From: an uncultured Candidatus Micrarchaeota archaeon
GTDB lineage: Archaea; Micrarchaeota; Micrarchaeia; Micrarchaeales; Micrarchaeaceae
DNA: 64,000 bases
Reading direction: 5' to 3'
Assembly: GCA_963741095.1 (NCBI GenBank)
Contig: CAVUGN010000004.1
Location: 32,001 to 96,000 of the forward strand
A program made the position numbers and the translations under genes. The notes beneath the pieces are model-generated. The model saw only the letters and a program-made list of their open reading frames with translations, searched no databases and was not told where the DNA came from. Shown piece after piece: positions 30,719-45,590 of this stretch (position 1 is its first letter; each line of letters starts with the position of its first letter).

Positions 30719-32014
30719 TCATCTGATCTCGGCTTCGGGGAAGTCCAGGGTTGCAAAATAATCTTCCGGGGTTTCTGCGCGCCTGATCAACTTTGCTTTT
30801 CCTGTACTCTGCATCAGAATCTCTGCACTGCGAAGCTTGCCATTATAATTGAAGCCCATCGCATGGCCATGCGCTCCGGCATTGTGTATCGCAAGTATGT
30901 CGCCCATCTTTATCTCCGGAAGCATACGGTCGACGGCAAACTTGTCGTTGTTTTCGCACAGCGATCCGACGACGTCGTATTTGTGGTCTCGCGGCGCGCC
31001 CTCCTTCCCTAGAATCGTGATGTGGTGATAAGCGCCGTACATCGCGGGGCGCATCAGGTTGGCCATGCACGCATCGACGCCTATGTACTCCTTGTAGATG
31101 TGCTTCTCGTGGATCGCGGTCGTTACCAGGTAGCCGAAGGGCCCGGTCATCATCCTGCCGTTCTCCATGAATATCTTAAGCGGCGCGAACCCGTTCTTCT
31201 CTATCTTTTCCGCATAAGCCGCGCGAATTCCGTCTGAAACCACCTGCAGGTCCACTGGCTTCTGCTCGGGCTTGTACGGTATCCCTATGCCCCCGCCCAG
31301 ATTCACAAACTCGAATCTTATCCCCAGTTTGCGCGAGAGTTCGACCACCAGGTCGAAGAGCATGTTGGCCGTTTCTATGAACGCCTGCGGGTCCAGCTCG
31401 TTCGAGGCTATCATCGTGTGCAGGCCGAAACGCTTCACTCCCTTGGCCTTCATTGCCGCATAGGCTTCGAAGAGCTGCGGCCTCGTAAGCCCGTACTTCG
31501 CCTGCTCCGGATTTCCGATCACGTTGCCCGCCGCGGTTTTTCTCAAAGGGCCGGGGTTGTACCTGAAGCATATTATGCCCGGTATGCCGGCGTGCTCTTC
31601 CAAGAAAGGGATGTGCGTTATATCGTCAAGGTTGATTATCGCGCCAAGCTCCATGGCCTTCTTGTACTCCCCCGCGGGGGTGTCGTTCGACGTGAACATT
31701 ATGCTCTCTCCCTTTATTCCGACCTTCTCGGCAAGCAGCAGCTCTGGCAGAGAGCTGCAATCTGCGCCGCATCCCTCCTTTTTCAAGATCTCGACCAAAT
31801 AGGGATTCGGGCAGGCCTTTACCGCGAAATAGTTCTTGAACCCCTGTGCCCATGCGAAGGTCTTGTACAATTTCCTTGCATTATCCCTGATGCTTTTCTC
31901 ATCGTAGATGTGGAAGGGAGTGGGATTCGTCTCCATTATCTTCCGGATCTGCGCCTCGCTGAAAAACAGGTCCTTGTCGTTGTTCATCGGATCCACCAAA
32001 CACAGCGTGTTCAT
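30719..32014 (-). CDS. lysA: Diaminopimelate decarboxylase
   Basis: TPFHIYDE, YFAVKAC (PLP Lys), NLGGG, ENGR, RPAMYGAYH, GSLCENND, MGFNYN. Confidence 0.93.
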   Translation of the reverse strand: MNTLCLVDPMNNDKDLFFSEAQIRKIMETNPTPFHIYDEKSIRDNARKLYKTFAWAQGFKNYFAVKACPNPYLVEILKKEGCGADCSSLPELLLAEKVGIKGESIMFTSNDTPAGEYKKAMELGAIINLDDITHIPFLEEHAGIPGIICFRYNPGPLRKTAAGNVIGNPEQAKYGLTRPQLFEAYAAMKAKGVKRFGLHTMIASNELDPQAFIETANMLFDLVVELSRKLGIRFEFVNLGGGIGIPYKPEQKPVDLQVVSDGIRAAYAEKIEKNGFAPLKIFMENGRMMTGPFGYLVTTAIHEKHIYKEYIGVDACMANLMRPAMYGAYHHITILGKEGAPRDHKYDVVGSLCENNDKFAVDRMLPEIKMGDILAIHNAGAHGHAMGFNYNGKLRSAEILMQSTGKAKLIRRAETPEDYFATLDFPEAEIR

Positions 32015-39003: not shown

Positions 39004-39894
39004 ATGATAAAGGTAACGTTCCTGGGAACTTCGGGCTCCGCTCCCACAATTGAGAGGAACCTCCCTAGCGTGGCCTTGGAATACAACGGCGACGTCTTCC
39101 TGTTCGACTGCGGCGAGGGCACCCAGCGTCAGGTTCTCAAATACTCGGTGAACCTTTCGAAGACAAAGGCGATATTCCTCAGCCACATGCACGGCGACCA
39201 CTCAATAGGCGTTGCTGGCGTGGTCAGGACACTGGCACTGAACAGGAGGTCCGCGCCTCTGCAGATATTCGTGCCGAAAGGAGAAGAAAAAGCGATAAAG
39301 CCGCTGCTTGAATTCGACAAGGCGGTGATGAGCTACGACATACTGATCAAGCCGATAACGGCCGGGACCATCTACGATGGCCACGGCTTCAAGATAACCG
39401 CGTTCAAGCTCTCGCACTCTGTGCGCGCGTACGGCTTCGTTTTCAAGGAAGACGACAAACTGCATTTCATAAAGGACAAGGCGAAAGAGGCGGGGCTGAA
39501 AGGGCCAATGTTCTCAAAACTAGTGAAGAGCGGAAGGATCACGATAGACGGGAAGAAGATAAGGCTCAAGGACATGACAACAAAAGAGCCTGGCAAGACC
39601 GTTGTCTATTCGACCGATACAAGGCCGTCGAAGGAGATAATCACCGCATCAAAAGGAGCGGACCTGTTGATATACGAATCGACCTACGCGAACTCGGAGG
39701 GCAAGCTGGCGATTGAGCGCAAGCATTCTACTGCCGAGGAGGGTGCTGAATTGGCAAAGAAGGCGAAGGTAAAGAAACTGGTGTTAACGCATATAAGCAC
39801 AAGGTACAAAAATGCTTCAATACTATTAAATGAAGCAAGGAAAAAGTTCACAAACGTTGAGCTTGCAAAGGATGGACTTGCTTTAACGATATAA
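39004..39894 (+). CDS. rnz: Ribonuclease Z
   Basis: FLGTSG..PT..RN, DCGEGTQ, SHMHGDH, DTRP, KHST, THISTRY. Confidence 0.97.
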   Translation: MIKVTFLGTSGSAPTIERNLPSVALEYNGDVFLFDCGEGTQRQVLKYSVNLSKTKAIFLSHMHGDHSIGVAGVVRTLALNRRSAPLQIFVPKGEEKAIKPLLEFDKAVMSYDILIKPITAGTIYDGHGFKITAFKLSHSVRAYGFVFKEDDKLHFIKDKAKEAGLKGPMFSKLVKSGRITIDGKKIRLKDMTTKEPGKTVVYSTDTRPSKEIITASKGADLLIYESTYANSEGKLAIERKHSTAEEGAELAKKAKVKKLVLTHISTRYKNASILLNEARKKFTNVELAKDGLALTI

Positions 39895-39897
39895 AAT

Positions 39898-39969
39898 GAG
39901 CCCGTAGTCGAATGGTAAGACGTCACGTTGACAACGTGGAGATCAGGAGTTCGATTCTCCTCGGGCTCA
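39898..39969 (+). tRNA. tRNA-Val(GAC)
   Basis: GAGCCCG/CGGGCTC-A; TCACG-TTGACAA-CGTGG; AGGAG-TTCGATT-CTCCT. Confidence 0.97.
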
Positions 39970-39997
39970 TATCGATTAAGAAAAGAACCGTGCTGGT

Positions 39998-40678
39998 TTA
40001 TCTCGCCAAAGGCACTATGGCATTGATGTCAGGGTCATCGTAAGCACACAAGTACTGCCGTTCCCACCCATCCTCCGAATTTATCATGTAATCTATGTAT
40101 TTCAGCGTCACCGGCCGTCCTTCTTTGGCTGCCTTCAGGGCACTTTTTTTGACGTACACTACATCTTTGCCGTCATAGCGGTCTGCATATTTGTTCACCG
40201 CTTCACCTCCGGATATGCGTTTGAAAGTTGCTTTCCCACCGTTACGAATGATTTGATGCCATCTAGTCTCCTTTGGCATACCCGTGGAATCCACCGCTAA
40301 TACATCTCCATCCTTCTTCATCTTCTCTATTGTCTTCAAATCACCGACAACCTCATCAAAGGCGGCAAGAGTACCGCCTAATGATATTGCGGTATCCCGT
40401 GCATCCTTAACCAGTGAACGTTGGCTCTGAAATGTATAAGATTTTTGTTTCGGCGCCTTTACTGTTTTGGCATGCTTCTCGCCATTTTTATCCGGCAATT
40501 GCACTTTTGCGCCACCGACCTTGTCTAGCGCCGAAGCAGACGGGCTTTTCACCTCTTCCTCCCTGATGAACTCCTTTAGCGCTTCCACCGTTTCCAGAGT
40601 CATCCTTCCGCTCGTCGCTGTGTTGCCGTTCAACTCAGCAGAAGCATTCGATTTCGTCACGCTTTTACTTGAATCCAT
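39998..40678 (-). CDS. Hypothetical protein: shared N-terminal tag plus possible C-type-lectin-like domain
   Basis: Tag GRMTLETVEALKEFIREEE; KSYTFQSQRSLVKDARDTAISLGGTLAAFDE resembles the CTLD beta1-alpha1 signature. Confidence 0.75.
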   Translation of the reverse strand: MDSSKSVTKSNASAELNGNTATSGRMTLETVEALKEFIREEEVKSPSASALDKVGGAKVQLPDKNGEKHAKTVKAPKQKSYTFQSQRSLVKDARDTAISLGGTLAAFDEVVGDLKTIEKMKKDGDVLAVDSTGMPKETRWHQIIRNGGKATFKRISGGEAVNKYADRYDGKDVVYVKKSALKAAKEGRPVTLKYIDYMINSEDGWERQYLCAYDDPDINAIVPLAR

Positions 40679-40701
40679 CCAAACACACGACCGTTACCTG
40701 T

Positions 40702-41184
40702 TCAAACATCCCTCAAAATCACCATGGGTGCTTTTGCTTTGAAATCAGAATCATCAACTTCAACGCCGATAAACTCTGCTTCAGTATAAGCAAAGAAAGG
40801 CGTATCCCCATTCTCGGGTCTGAGGTGCGCCCACTCCCCCCGCTTCACTGCCTTGGAAAGAACGGCAAACGACTTCCCATCATATATCAATCTCCTCACA
40901 TCTTTAGCGGTGAGCAACTCCTTTCCCTCGATGCTGGCTATCTCTTCCGTGCGCTTAACATTCACTCCTTTGCCCTTTTCGAATCTCAGGATCTCGTATG
41001 TCTCGTCCCCGATCTTGATGGATGTCCTACTGGCCACCCCGGGCAGCTCGGTTTTTGCATCGTTAACCGTATGAATCTGCACTGAAGCCGATATCCTTTC
41101 CGCATCCTCGCTCCTTACGAATGCCCTTATCACCTCTATCCTCTCAAGAGTCATCAGTCCGTCATTTTTTGCGTTGGTTTCCAT
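40702..41184 (-). CDS. Hypothetical protein with shared N-terminal tag
   Basis: Tag GLMTLERIEVIRAFVRSED; its stop is 23 nt before the next start. Confidence 0.75.
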   Translation of the reverse strand: METNAKNDGLMTLERIEVIRAFVRSEDAERISASVQIHTVNDAKTELPGVASRTSIKIGDETYEILRFEKGKGVNVKRTEEIASIEGKELLTAKDVRRLIYDGKSFAVLSKAVKRGEWAHLRPENGDTPFFAYTEAEFIGVEVDDSDFKAKAPMVILRDV

Positions 41185-41223
41185 TTCATACCTTTTTTGC
41201 TGCGTCCTTGAGCTTTTCCCAGC

Positions 41224-42636
41224 TCAATCCCCGCTCCAGTCCATCCATGTCTCTTTCCTTAATGCGTCCTTGAGCAGCTTTTTCATTTCTTTGTCATGGG
41301 TGTAGTGCATCACATTCTTACCCGAATTATCCTTCCAACTCACCTTTGCCCCCGCTTGTATCAGCATCTCGGCCATCTTTCTATTGCCGTGAAATACGGC
41401 ATGCGTCAGCGCTGTCCGGCCTTCGCTTTCAACCACGAGATTCGCACCGCCGTCTATCAAATTTCTTACCATGTCCAAGTCCGGATTGTCTTTGCTGACT
41501 TCATCAAGCAGCGTTGTCCCCCGCTCTGTTGCTGTGTCTTCCAGCAGCTTTTTTATATCCTTGTCTTTGGTTACTTCCATAGCCCTCTGGATTGAGTTCG
41601 AGCCGCTGGATATCAAAGTTTCAACCGCTTCCTTATGGCCCTCTTTCGAAGCCCACATCAGTGCGGTCCAACCGTGTTCATCTCTCGCATTCACTTCCGC
41701 TCCGTCGTTCAGCAGTACTTTGACCATTTCATTACAACCATACATCGAGGCTTGCATCAACGGTGTCGTACCATCATGGCTCTTTACATTTACATCAGCC
41801 CCGTGGCGTATCAATGTCTCGGCAATTTCGAGCGTATCCCCATATGAAGCGTATATCAGCGCTGTGCGACCAGAATTGTTGCTGGCGTCCACCTCGGCGC
41901 CGCTGCTCAGCAAAACGTCAACTACTCCTTTATGCTCTTCTTGTGAAGCCCACATCAGGGCTGTGCTACCTGTGCTGGACTGCAGATTCACATCTGCCCC
42001 GTTTTTCAGCAGGATTTTGATAATATCCTCATAACCCTCCTTCGAAGCCTCCATCAGCGCCGTCCGGTTTCCCTTGTTCTCCAAAGTAGAATCGGCGCCT
42101 TTATTCAGCAGTATACCAACCGTTTCATCATAGCCGTTAATCGAAGCCAAAATCAGCGCCGTGTTTTCGTAATTGCCCGTCATGTTTACGTCTGCCTTGC
42201 CGTCCAGCAGCATCCTGACAACATCATTGTGGCCGCAATACGAAGCCCACATAAGCGCGGTCCAGCCGTCCTCATCACTCAGGTTCACATCAGCCTTGCG
42301 GTCCAGCAATGCCTCAACCGCCTCGCTGTAGCCGGACATCGAAGCGTACATAAGCGCAGTCATACCTTTATGATCCTTTAGATTCACGTCCGCCCCTTTC
42401 TGTAAAAGCTCTTTAATTCCTTCAATATTTCCCGCCTTTACCTCCTTGAACAGCGCATTTCCCAGCTCCTTTGCTCTATCTACGCAAACAACAGGCTCAT
42501 TTGTAGCCCCTCTATGCAACATGGCCGCATTGTTGGCTGCTATGTTGGTTTGTTCATCCGTCTGTCTGACGAATGCCTTTATCGAGTCCAACCTTTCGGG
42601 GGTTATCCTTCCGTCCTTGTTCGAGCTGTTTTCCAT
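41224..42636 (-). CDS. Ankyrin-repeat protein with shared N-terminal tag
   Basis: About eight tandem 33-aa G.TALM.AS..G..E.V..LL..GADVN repeats plus a second short block; tag GRITPERLDSIKAFVRQTD. Confidence 0.95.
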   Translation of the reverse strand: MENSSNKDGRITPERLDSIKAFVRQTDEQTNIAANNAAMLHRGATNEPVVCVDRAKELGNALFKEVKAGNIEGIKELLQKGADVNLKDHKGMTALMYASMSGYSEAVEALLDRKADVNLSDEDGWTALMWASYCGHNDVVRMLLDGKADVNMTGNYENTALILASINGYDETVGILLNKGADSTLENKGNRTALMEASKEGYEDIIKILLKNGADVNLQSSTGSTALMWASQEEHKGVVDVLLSSGAEVDASNNSGRTALIYASYGDTLEIAETLIRHGADVNVKSHDGTTPLMQASMYGCNEMVKVLLNDGAEVNARDEHGWTALMWASKEGHKEAVETLISSGSNSIQRAMEVTKDKDIKKLLEDTATERGTTLLDEVSKDNPDLDMVRNLIDGGANLVVESEGRTALTHAVFHGNRKMAEMLIQAGAKVSWKDNSGKNVMHYTHDKEMKKLLKDALRKETWMDWSGD

Positions 42637-42740
42637 CAAAAAAGCCTCGTTACAAGTGCGATTTGGAGATACTTATGCCTTGCAACGACCTTCGTCAATC
42701 GTAGAAGTCGGCACTCCACAAGAATATTTATTACTTCAAA

Positions 42741-43628
42741 ATGGAGTATACTGCGATGAGAAACAGTTCTGAAAACAGGTTCTGGGCGTATCTGGTCCCG
42801 CTGCTGATCATTGCGATGATGGCGGCATCAAGCCTGTTTTATGCGATCTTTCTGCCCAAACAGGAGAGTGTGTTGGGGGGATTTTTCGGGATATACACCA
42901 GCATTTTCAACGGGTACACTGAAGTTTCGGGGCAATTCTTGGTGGCAGCCCTGAACGCCCTGACTGCAATGATGTTGGTGGCATTTTCCGCAGTCTGCAT
43001 CGACAAACTGCTGCACCTCAGGAAGCACATAAACTTCATCTTCCTGATGATGCTGGCATCGCAATTCCTGTTCGTAGGCCTGGTTGGTTTCAACACCCCT
43101 GGATTTGCCGGTGGCGTCTCATTGTTCGACACGGACTGCATGGTGGTAATCATAGCGGCATTCCTGATGGGCATTGCCACCCTTCTTTCGAAGTCCGTCA
43201 GAACCGGCCGGCGAGCAATCGACAGGATGGGCCCGGGGTTCTTCGTGTTCTCCGGAGTATGCCCTGCGATGCTGGTTGCGCTTCTCTCCGCCGCTGACAA
43301 CAATTATGCCTACATCTACTACGCGCCCATGCTGGTCCTGCTTTCCCTGTTCTATTACTACCTCTACAGCTGGAAGAAGCTGGAATCCGAATCGACAAGG
43401 CTGCTGGGCATCTGGCTGTTAATCGTGATGCTGCTTCTATCAATGGAACTGTACCTGATGTACATAATCGTAGCGCCGCATCTTGTTGGCCTGCTGCTTT
43501 ATTCGGGCATGCTTGTTTTTGCATACTGCGTTTATGCAATCTACCTGATACGCACCGGAAAAATCTTCGGCACCGGCAAAAAGAAGACAAGAGCAAAAAC
43601 GCCAAGACGTAGAATCCGCAATGCCTGA
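42741..43628 (+). CDS. Polytopic membrane protein, divergent rhomboid-like
   Basis: 7-8 hydrophobic segments; YTSIF, LNAL, GGVSL and PHLVG occur in rhomboid order. Confidence 0.5.
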   Translation: MEYTAMRNSSENRFWAYLVPLLIIAMMAASSLFYAIFLPKQESVLGGFFGIYTSIFNGYTEVSGQFLVAALNALTAMMLVAFSAVCIDKLLHLRKHINFIFLMMLASQFLFVGLVGFNTPGFAGGVSLFDTDCMVVIIAAFLMGIATLLSKSVRTGRRAIDRMGPGFFVFSGVCPAMLVALLSAADNNYAYIYYAPMLVLLSLFYYYLYSWKKLESESTRLLGIWLLIVMLLLSMELYLMYIIVAPHLVGLLLYSGMLVFAYCVYAIYLIRTGKIFGTGKKKTRAKTPRRRIRNA

Positions 43629-43682
43629 GCAACGCAGAACAATATTCATATCTTATGGTGCATAAACTATCATAACATCAAG

Positions 43683-45590
43683 ATGCTTGTAATGACGAAG
43701 AACAATGTCACCATAGGGCTCATCCAGACTGCCGTTTCTGAAGACCTGGAGGCCAACCTGAAAAAGACCGTTGCCAAGATAGCCGAAGCCGCGAAAAAGG
43801 GCGCGCAGATAATCTGCCTGCAGGAGCTTTACCGCACAAGGTACTTCCCGCAGCACGAAAAGAAGGATGCAAGCGCCCTGGCGGAGACCGTGCCAGGCGA
43901 ATCGACTTCGGTCCTGTCCGATCTGGCGAAGAAGCTTTCCGTTGTGATAATAGTACCCATATTCGAAAAGGATCCCAGCGGCAAATACTACAATTCCGCG
44001 ATCGTGATCGATGCTGACGGGAAGTTGATGGGCACCTACCGCAAGATGCACATACCCCATGACCCGTTCTTCTACGAGAAAAGCTATTTCACCGCAGGTG
44101 ACCTCGGCTACCGGGTCTTCAAGACGCGCTACGCCTCGATTGCGGTGCTGATATGCTACGACCAATGGTTTCCCGAAGCGGCGAGGATATGCACGCTGAA
44201 AGGAGCCGACATAATCTTCTATCCTACCGCGATCGGCTACCCTGACGGTTACCAATCGCCTGACGAGGATTGGCAGGAGGCATGGGAAGTCATACAGCGT
44301 TCGCATTCCATCGCCAACGGCGTGCACGTCGCGGCAGTGAACCGCGTCGGCAGGGAGGGCAGCATAACCTTCTGGGGAGGATCGTTTGTCAGCGACGCTT
44401 TCGGGAAAGTCCTCAAGAGGGCCGGCAAGGAAGAGGAGGTGCTTATGGTCAAGATAGACACCAGTCAGAACAAGATGCTTCAAGACGCCTGGGGCTTCCA
44501 CAAGAACCGCAGGCCGGAAACATACGCACCGATAATCTCCCAAGATACACCTGCTCATCTTGGATACCATATGCCTGCAGAATGGGAAAAACACAAGGCC
44601 ACGTGGCTGTCATGGCCGCATGATCCGCTGACCTTTCCCAACGGCGTGGAGAAGGCGGAAAAGACGTACCTTGAGATAATAGGCGCGCTGCAAAAAAGTG
44701 AGGATGTCAATCTCTTTGTTACTGATAACGATGCAAAAGCGAGAGTTTCAGGCCTGCTGAAGTCAAGCGGCATAGATCAAAAGAGAGTGAAATTCCACGT
44801 CTGGGACTATGCGGACGTCTGGATGCGCGACTACGGCCCGATATTCCTTGTCAACAAGAACACAAAGAAACTTGCAATGGTGCATTGGATATTCGATGCA
44901 TGGGGCGGCAAATATGCCGAGCTCATGAAGGACACTGGAATGCCGGATTTCATAAACCAGGAATTGAAAATAGAGTGCTTCACTCCGGGCATCGTACTGG
45001 AAGGCGGATCGATAGACGTGAATGGCAGCGGCACGCTCATGACAACCGAGCAGTGCCTCCTGAACAAGAACCGGAATCCCAGCCTCTCAAGGAAGGACAT
45101 TGAGAGATACCTCATGGACTACCTCGGAGTGAGAAACATCATCTGGATAAAGGGCGGGATCGAGGGCGACGACACCGACGGGCATGTCGATGACATCGCG
45201 CGCTTCGTCAATTCCAACACCGTTGTCTGCGCCTATGAAGAGGACGAAAGGGACGAGAACCATTCGATACTGAAGGAGAATTACGAGATGCTGCTAAAAG
45301 CAAAGGATCAGGATGGGAACAGACTGAACGTGATACGCCTGCCCATGCCGCCTCGGCTTGATGACAAATTCACCGACGGGGGCAAAAGACTGCCCGCAAG
45401 CTACCTGAATTTCTACATCGGCAGCGAGGTTGTGCTCGTGCCTGTGTTTGGGCATAAGAATGATGCCATCGCGCTGAAAATCATCCAGGAGGCGTTCCAG
45501 AACAGAAAAGTGGTCGGCATCAACTGCTCGGATCTCGTTTATGGCCTGGGCGCAATCCACTGCATCACGCAGCAGCAGCCCGAGATATGA
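43683..45590 (+). CDS. Fusion: N-carbamoylputrescine amidase-like nitrilase plus agmatine deiminase
   Basis: N-half CLQEL, YRKMHIP, ICYDQWFPE (E-K-C triad); C-half MPAEW, DVWMRDYGP, LEGGS, DDTDGHVD, GAIHCITQQ. Confidence 0.95.
   Translation: MLVMTKNNVTIGLIQTAVSEDLEANLKKTVAKIAEAAKKGAQIICLQELYRTRYFPQHEKKDASALAETVPGESTSVLSDLAKKLSVVIIVPIFEKDPSGKYYNSAIVIDADGKLMGTYRKMHIPHDPFFYEKSYFTAGDLGYRVFKTRYASIAVLICYDQWFPEAARICTLKGADIIFYPTAIGYPDGYQSPDEDWQEAWEVIQRSHSIANGVHVAAVNRVGREGSITFWGGSFVSDAFGKVLKRAGKEEEVLMVKIDTSQNKMLQDAWGFHKNRRPETYAPIISQDTPAHLGYHMPAEWEKHKATWLSWPHDPLTFPNGVEKAEKTYLEIIGALQKSEDVNLFVTDNDAKARVSGLLKSSGIDQKRVKFHVWDYADVWMRDYGPIFLVNKNTKKLAMVHWIFDAWGGKYAELMKDTGMPDFINQELKIECFTPGIVLEGGSIDVNGSGTLMTTEQCLLNKNRNPSLSRKDIERYLMDYLGVRNIIWIKGGIEGDDTDGHVDDIARFVNSNTVVCAYEEDERDENHSILKENYEMLLKAKDQDGNRLNVIRLPMPPRLDDKFTDGGKRLPASYLNFYIGSEVVLVPVFGHKNDAIALKIIQEAFQNRKVVGINCSDLVYGLGAIHCITQQQPEI

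Follow-up and report, generated by a model that had tools for sequence, protein, structure and literature searches.

A constant N-terminal tag on 34 proteins of a Micrarchaeota archaeon, most of them members of one ankyrin family

Introduction

What do three adjacent genes share when the bodies of their products are unrelated, and why has it been kept? The question is posed by positions 39998 to 42636 of a 64,000-nucleotide (nt) stretch of DNA from an uncultured Candidatus Micrarchaeota archaeon (the window; positions 32,001 to 96,000 of contig CAVUGN010000004.1). On the minus strand of this block lie three co-oriented, closely spaced genes, which encode an ankyrin-repeat protein and the products of two open reading frames (ORFs), ORF2 and ORF3, and each begins with a copy of the same short motif, here called the tag. 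A preliminary description made from the letters had proposed that the tag is a shuffled address on interchangeable binding modules; the three genes, their coordinates and the motifs that it quoted all read exactly as it gave them. Little is known, to our knowledge, of the ways in which DPANN archaea influence their hosts, and neither a set of effectors nor a sorting signal has yet been described in them. We report that 34 proteins encoded in this genome begin with the tag as a constant module, and weigh the readings that this distribution allows.

Results

The window copies belong to a set of 34

Pairwise BLASTP comparisons of the three window proteins confined their similarity to the N-termini (ORF3/ORF2, E 1e-7; ORF2/ankyrin protein, E 2e-6; ORF3/ankyrin protein, E 0.016), all remaining segments giving E values of 0.065 or higher. 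The bodies are thus unrelated, as had been claimed, and homology over the full length of the three proteins was not seen by BLASTP; the short DNA identities pointed out earlier, three 9-mers, are likewise present in the sequence. The ankyrin protein matched the Pfam families Ank_2 (PF12796, E 7.6e-82) and Ank (PF00023, E 1.8e-81), and ORF2 and ORF3 had no Pfam match at E<=0.1.

The genome searched (11 contigs, 1.08 Mb in total) has an archaeal 16S gene and was represented by simple longest-ORF calls; the label DPANN is based here on that gene and on the small genome. Regular expressions taken from the earlier description, strict and loosened, recovered in six frames the three window copies and nothing further, so that a profile was needed. 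A fourth copy, on another contig, surfaced through a similarity search with ORF3, and the four N-terminal copies were built into a profile of 40 columns. This returned 34 matches (E 8e-23 to 5e-5), every one at an ORF start and beginning at or near profile position 1. The start codon stands exactly 8 codons before an invariant glycine in 30 of the 34 genes (28 ATG, 2 TTG/GTG) and elsewhere in the other 4, and the first ~25 residues follow the consensus M-E-x-N-A-N-x-D-G-[KR]-M-T-x-[EDQ]-R-[AV]-[DE]-A-[IL]-[KR]-A-F-V-R-Q. A common register had been noticed for two of the three window genes; ORF3 fits it too if read from its in-frame TTG at 40633. The earlier observation thus holds, and it understated the extent of the tag.

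Codon evidence for selection on the peptide

Comparison of the copies over tag codons 9 to 25 gives a median of 1.05 synonymous substitutions per synonymous site (dS; saturated in 84 of 528 pairs) and a median ratio of nonsynonymous to synonymous substitution (dN/dS) of 0.28. Where two copies have the same residue they write it with different codons in 2170 of 5149 codon pairs; Arg15 is encoded by AGA, AGG, CGA, CGG and CGT, and Thr12 by all four of its codons. As judged from these codon comparisons, selection at the protein level maintains the tag. Most pairs of copies are 65-85% identical in DNA, one pair being identical throughout, and tags on non-ankyrin genes are closest to those of nearby array genes (81% and 89% DNA identity).

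Some positions are more uniform than the genome at large: GGA is used at Gly9 in 25 of 33 copies as against a genome usage of 22%, GCG at Ala18 in 23 of 26 as against 36%, and codon choice at Val23 follows the same trend. Such uniformity is what would be expected if the 5' end were an expression cassette, kept as DNA or RNA for a stop-restart junction (TGA, 1 nt, ATG) and the first codons, the peptide itself being irrelevant, and a stop triplet does occupy positions -4 to -2 before 21 of the 34 tagged starts. We nevertheless consider this explanation very improbable, since it does not account for synonymous sites close to saturation where the residues are kept, for the exchange of codons at identical residues, or for the fall in information content at the third base of the Thr12 codon and of codons near it; genes that lead an array, and so would have a promoter of their own, are tagged as well.

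One ankyrin family and eight other bodies

Clustering by BLASTP after removal of the first ~53 residues placed the tagged bodies in one ankyrin component of 26 and eight singletons, ORF2 and ORF3 among the latter. The profile scan for further N-terminal copies, which had been suggested as a check on the preliminary description, thus yielded 34 copies on at least nine unrelated kinds of body. Ankyrin repeats are confirmed by Pfam in 4 of the 26 (the window protein and three paralogues), the other 22 being assigned by BLASTP link; none of the eight singleton bodies has a Pfam match. The tag is thus first and foremost the shared start of a single ankyrin family that has expanded (26 of 34 carriers), and local recombination has passed it to a few other genes. 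All ankyrin ORFs found in the genome are tagged but one, which lies on the 5.4-kb contig C7; this contig, which may be a piece of a mobile element or plasmid, holds the untagged ORF (572 aa) and a HerA/FtsK-like ATPase fragment at its end.

Homologues of the ORF3 body (P0003, P0004 and loci in the genomes G011 and G001) align from about residue 85 on; the 70-85 residues that they lack at the start comprise the tag and the linker behind it. Three further non-ankyrin bodies likewise have homologues in the family that match only behind the tag (Table 1), with N-termini that are short, polar and without a signal peptide. Given these tagless homologues elsewhere, four of the eight non-ankyrin bodies, ORF3 included, are older genes that gained the tag here. 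The ORF2 body gave nothing in PHROGs, NCBIfam and PADLOC scans and nothing below E 0.13 in a sequence search of the PDB, and a search for relatives of near length among 5.8 billion clusters found ORF2 itself alone. PHROGs and PADLOC scans of eight window and non-ankyrin bodies, together with P0030, a tagged protein described below, were empty.

Two loci on contig C6 depart from the usual architecture. At C6:37455-37928 (L042:4452-4925) a tag cut short after about residue 22 is joined to a small membrane protein of the multi-pass type. The other, a tagged ankyrin gene at C6:36811-37314 (L042:3811-4311), runs into an arginine-rich out-of-frame tail, the Pfam ankyrin match resuming in another frame at C6:37100-37369, and is probably a frameshifted pseudogene.

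Distribution beyond the genome

Among 100 family genomes nothing matched the tag profile with an E value below 0.01, and among 400 phylum genomes one marginal match came up (E 0.003). Ankyrin arrays are present in the family genomes G018, G019 and G020 with other N-termini. One of these, L066 (G019:C2:266932-270210), is a tandem array that has no N-terminal tag and shares a C-terminal tail of ~40 aa (…AELLRPATEEII.KID.RGG.RGVKLR…), which may be due to plain descent, the paralogues being recent.

A profile of 33 rows was run against 1.84 billion representative proteins and found 37, of which 27 are at least 92% identical to the genome's own tagged proteins. Four belong to other organisms. Three of them (P0016, P0027 and P0034) are ankyrin proteins that share 40-44% identity with their nearest counterpart in the present genome, and P0030 is a non-ankyrin carrier with its methionine in register. 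The remaining six belong to other repeat families (HA, PG_binding_1 and others) and match 11-21 profile positions only, those of HA and PG_binding_1 having surfaced through short repeated stretches at profile positions 6-22; no tag matches the Pfam model of either PG_binding_1 (PF01471) or HA (PF03457). Pattern scans with a smaller alignment gave 127 pattern matches in the genomes of 185,579 species and 192 in metagenome contigs of the Joint Genome Institute (JGI), none of which was confirmed, and a word-based search for longer proteins, in which 8000 candidates were scored, returned the organism's own proteins only. Together these searches suggest that the tag is lineage-specific and accessory. 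Literature on Micrarchaeota or DPANN ankyrin proteins, in limited searches of titles and abstracts, did not describe such a tag; ankyrin genes are absent in Undinarchaeota according to one study (PMC7414124).

Predicted structure of tag, linker and payload

The model of the window ankyrin protein has an overall predicted local distance difference test (pLDDT) score of 85. Its tag forms helices at residues 13-29 (pLDDT ~72) and 34-42, residues 26-46 score below 50 and the repeats 94-98. For ORF3 a helix is modelled at residues 28-39, with residues 1-27 and 39-86 below 50 and a body at ~90, giving the order tag, low-confidence linker of ~45-60 aa and folded body at residues ~87-226. The tag is accordingly predicted, at modest confidence, to be a helix, followed by a low-confidence linker and a folded payload; neither model has a beta-strand in the tag. 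Comparison of the ORF3 body by VIA-align gave Z scores from 6.1 (1byf) down to 3.9 over 82-106 aligned residues, nearly all to C-type-lectin-like domains, although a Z below 8 may reflect a common arrangement only, and Foldseek returned nothing for this body at E<=0.001. The models are thus suggestive of a C-type-lectin-like fold.

Sequence and structure libraries offered no clear relative of the tag itself. When 33 tags were scanned singly against Pfam at E<=10, SHOCT was not among the matches and no family was matched by more than one tag. The Protein Data Bank matches to the tag profile were all sub-threshold, among them a ParD ribbon-helix-helix antitoxin at E 0.15; the best ESM Atlas score, 0.78, lies within the range reached by shuffled proteins. 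A dimer prediction with two copies of the tag scored 0.03 against a mark of 0.42, run without controls.

These results bear on the possibility that the tag is a small intrinsic N-terminal domain of the ankyrin family, serving self-association, autoinhibition of the repeat groove or nucleic-acid binding (in the manner of a helix-loop-helix or ribbon-helix-helix), and that its presence on eight non-ankyrin bodies is a side effect of recombination at the array junction. The preponderance of one family among the carriers would follow from it, as would the relation of non-ankyrin tags to those of nearby arrays; conservation runs in many copies into the second short helix (34-42 in the ankyrin model), and the weak ParD likeness and the short HA and PG_binding_1 matches point the same way. 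Diverged non-ankyrin tags, however, keep Gly9, Met/Ile11, Thr12, an aromatic residue at 22 and a basic one at 24, and this speaks for a role that does not depend on the repeats. A low-confidence linker moreover parts the helix from the body in the models, the tag has no strand in either of them, and the Pfam scans brought up no recurrent family. We regard an intrinsic domain as somewhat unlikely.

Arrays, junctions and genomic neighbours

The 34 genes occupy 11 loci among housekeeping genes (FtsZ, proteasome, exosome), mostly as head-to-tail arrays. Their junctions have a set form, in which an ankyrin 3' end and a TGA or TAA are followed by 1 nt, the ATG and the tag; the in-register TTG 40633 of ORF3 is also preceded by TGA and 1 nt. 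DNA conservation upstream of the tag, which might have been a promoter or RNA element, proved to be the conserved C-terminus of the preceding ankyrin gene. Such a junction offers recombination a site at which to multiply the genes and hand the tag to others, and the arrays illustrate, within a very small genome, how one family can grow in this way and pass its N-terminus on to other genes. A genome of the same genus, G001 (84% complete, 140 contigs, FtsZ 92% identical), has no tag match among its sequences; there, FtsZ and a Rad50/SMC-like gene are 43 nt apart (L087, C114), and two tagged ankyrin genes occupy that interval in the present genome.

The window itself bears traces of this process. 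A relic of a canonical ankyrin-gene 3' end (Table 1) directly precedes ORF2 and is out of frame with the present ankyrin gene, which suggests, as far as the bare sequence can be read, that an array gene was deleted before ORF2. The C-terminal array motif occurs twice in the 470-aa ankyrin gene, at 41263-41301 and 41533-41571 (a DNA repeat, D3, 77% identical); with this internal copy the gene probably joins what were once two array genes, the second of which no longer has its tag.

A Pfam scan of 15 neighbours of the tag loci found among them a ChaN-like protein, a MoxR-like AAA_5 and VWA pair, and helix-turn-helix regulators. The MoxR-like AAA_5 ATPase and VWA protein (C5:64235-67530; L039:4235-7530) lie 12 nt upstream of the tagged ankyrin gene C5:67543. 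Another tagged ankyrin gene lies 3 kb upstream of the 16S rRNA gene (C1:98605-100598; L074), which is 1994 nt long against a model of 1478 positions, an excess that points to an insertion of ~500 nt.

Tandem ankyrin proteins are reported to serve as immunity genes in polymorphic-toxin systems (PMC3482391), and the window ankyrin protein does match ankyrin-containing PADLOC models, so the arrays might be read as immunity proteins of such a system or of another conflict system. Those PADLOC matches span the repeats only, no toxin-like gene or known trafficking domain lies beside the 11 loci, and the tag on non-ankyrin bodies would go unexplained; we find this reading the most improbable of those considered.

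The preliminary description had held that the motif is not a Sec or Tat signal, and checks of hydrophobic stretches and twin arginines bear this out. No Sec h-region was seen in the first 60 aa of 33 of the 34 proteins (12-residue Kyte-Doolittle mean no higher than 1.22), the exception being the membrane protein C6:37455 (maximum 2.25), and none of the 34 has a twin-arginine motif (RR-x-[FGAVML]-[LITMVF]) near its N-terminus. This lack of an export signal, and of dedicated secretion genes next to the loci, would suit proteins that stay inside the archaeal cell as adaptors docking to a hub, be it an unfoldase or protease, a modifying enzyme or a scaffold. The architecture, in which a short helical end stays the same and a linker leads to a binding domain that varies, is also that of exchangeable substrate receptors such as F-box or SOCS-box proteins. 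No hub candidate was found, however, no F-box or similar Pfam family is matched by the ankyrin protein or by any of the 33 tags, and a need for 34 receptors is hard to see when 100 relatives in the family lack them. Hub docking thus seems to us unlikely.

The window block

The coordinates of the block are collected in Table 1. A TATA-like element ahead of the ankyrin gene, found by eye, is probably the promoter of the three-gene unit, and elements of the type ATAAATATCT were also found by eye upstream of other array-leading tagged genes. A divergent gene for a 295-aa multi-pass membrane protein without a Pfam match (42741-43628, plus strand) adjoins the block. Short pieces 99-100% identical to the block occur in contigs of 4 sequencing runs from 4 studies, none of them spanning it, and the parts left uncovered carry no weight. 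No RNA run is listed among those that contain this stretch.

The block does lie beside tRNA-Val(GAC), as had been described, but the lower guanine-plus-cytosine (GC) content attributed to it is a weak effect (0.49 against 0.53 for the window). A tRNA-linked island was rejected, no att-like direct repeat of the tRNA-Val 3' end being found within 39800-43800, and so was a low-GC island, tagged genes having a GC content of 0.523 (n=32) against 0.519 for the rest (standard deviation 0.05, n=1146; Mann-Whitney p=0.50).

Table 1. Features of the three-gene block (window positions) and non-ankyrin tagged bodies with tagless homologues elsewhere
Feature	Coordinates	Strand	Remarks
tRNA-Val(GAC)	39897-39970	+	ARAGORN; convergent with the three genes; 27 nt from the ORF3 stop
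ORF3, 226 aa	39998-40678	-	start is ATG 40678 or in-register TTG 40633
ORF3 tag-coding stretch, codons 1-27 counted from TTG 40633	40553-40633	-	MNGNTATSGRMTLETVEALKEFIREEE; profile E 2e-20
ORF2, 160 aa, tag and orphan body	40702-41184	-	reading frame
ORF2 tag-coding stretch, codons 1-27	41104-41184	-	METNAKNDGLMTLERIEVIRAFVRSED; profile E 1.5e-22
Relic of canonical ankyrin-gene 3' end	41186-41221	-	WEKLKDAAKKV-stop, 1 nt, ORF2 ATG; read from the sequence
Ankyrin-repeat protein, 470 aa from ATG 42636 (upstream TTG 42639)	41224-42636	-	Pfam
Ankyrin-gene tag-coding stretch, codons 1-27	42556-42636	-	MENSSNKDGRITPERLDSIKAFVRQTD; profile E 1.2e-22
TATA-like element cataagtatctcc	42665-42677	-	~41 nt upstream of the ankyrin ATG; by eye
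Non-ankyrin body	C5:18642		homologues in 3 of 100 family genomes; match from residue 38-50 onward
Non-ankyrin body	C9:108723		homologues in 13 of 100 family genomes, and untagged paralogues in its own genome; match from residue 38-50
Non-ankyrin body	C9:64601		homologues in 8 of 100 family genomes; match from residue 38-50 onward

Discussion

The position of the tag at residue 1, selection at the level of the protein, the linker, the unrelated payloads, the tagless homologues of some of these and the restriction to one lineage fit a constant recognition element on a flexible tether. The constant helix would be a recognition tag read by one common partner, while the variable payloads, mostly protein- or ligand-binding modules, would supply specificity; the partner would most likely belong to a route that sorts these proteins, or hands them over, to the outside of the cell or the site of contact with a host, and the tagged set would then be an effector repertoire with an address label of its own. 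We put forward tentatively, as plausible though short of probable, that the tag is a sorting or hand-over signal for host-directed proteins. In a bolder form of this proposal, which we hold to be doubtful, a DPANN-type symbiont would mark ~30 binding proteins with one helix for transfer to its host by a non-Sec route such as a cell-to-cell bridge or vesicles, and the tag would be the first archaeal sorting signal for host-directed proteins to be defined by its sequence.

Several observations weigh against a sorting signal. No partner, secretion machinery or co-occurring gene was found: housekeeping genes surround the 11 loci, no family or partner recurs among them, and the one kind of secretion gene searched for, T2SSE-type ATPases, is present in three copies that are ordinary for archaea and unlinked to the tag loci. 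Of the address on interchangeable modules proposed at the outset, an add-on tag with largely binding payloads stands, whereas a role in export or docking and an action on a host are conjectural. The amphipathic character described with it has no numerical support, the hydrophobic moment of the consensus helix being 0.33 against a mean of 0.31 for its shuffles, 44% of which reach it. Because 26 of the 34 carriers belong to one family, common descent alone explains most copies; transfers to other bodies number only 8, including the truncated tag on the membrane protein, and one of the tagged ankyrin genes is frameshifted. The uniform codons mean that part of the conservation may be nucleotide-level or due to gene conversion, and host association of the organism is itself an assumption.

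Whatever its role, the 25-residue motif marks ~3% of the genes and lists candidate effectors, and the tag is a possible peptide bait for its reader that could be fused to reporters.

Comparison with known systems gives partial parallels. SHOCT (PF09851) is, according to Eberhardt et al. 2013 (PMC3581485), a short end-of-protein module on many architectures and of unknown function; at ~30 aa, with a strongly conserved glycine, other charged and hydrophobic positions that are conserved and, to the eye, the spacing G-x-[IM]-T-x-E...K, it resembles the tag, but the same source has it mostly C-terminal, with a helix before the glycine, and widespread in bacteria. The F-box and SOCS-box receptors also join a constant helical motif of ~40 aa to exchangeable binding domains that include ankyrin repeats, whereas the tags have no Pfam match to them and no hub of the Skp1 or cullin type is known here, though no search aimed at one was made. 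The capsid-targeting sequence of phage T4 and the encapsulation peptides of bacterial microcompartments are short N-terminal helices or peptides that, with a poorly conserved linker, address unrelated cargo to one assembly; the tagged genes are scattered over 11 loci among housekeeping genes, where no capsid, shell or encapsulin was seen, though no search aimed at these was made.

The ankyrin repertoires of Legionella and Coxiella (Dot/Icm Ank proteins), Wolbachia and Orientia are alike in being large, lineage-specific and accessory sets in small genomes that differ among close relatives. Those bacterial effectors have C-terminal or non-conserved signals and a known type IV machine, whereas here the tag is conserved, N-terminal and archaeal. 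The NCBIfam equivalogs for Legionella Ank proteins scored far below their cut-offs (best AnkY, 181 bits against 600; others lower), so that the repeats alone match.

Further parallels in design are the MIX (type VI), LXG (type VII) and oomycete RxLR systems, in which a constant N-terminal element precedes unrelated C-terminal parts, spreads by recombination and can serve as a handle in searches for the full repertoire. Sequence likeness and linked secretion genes are lacking in the present case, the tag sits at residue 1 with no signal peptide before it, and the payloads are binding modules in place of toxin or enzyme domains. We know of no polymorphic-effector marker system, of the MIX or LXG kind or the like, in archaea. 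As close relatives lack it, the tag suggests a lineage-specific address label.

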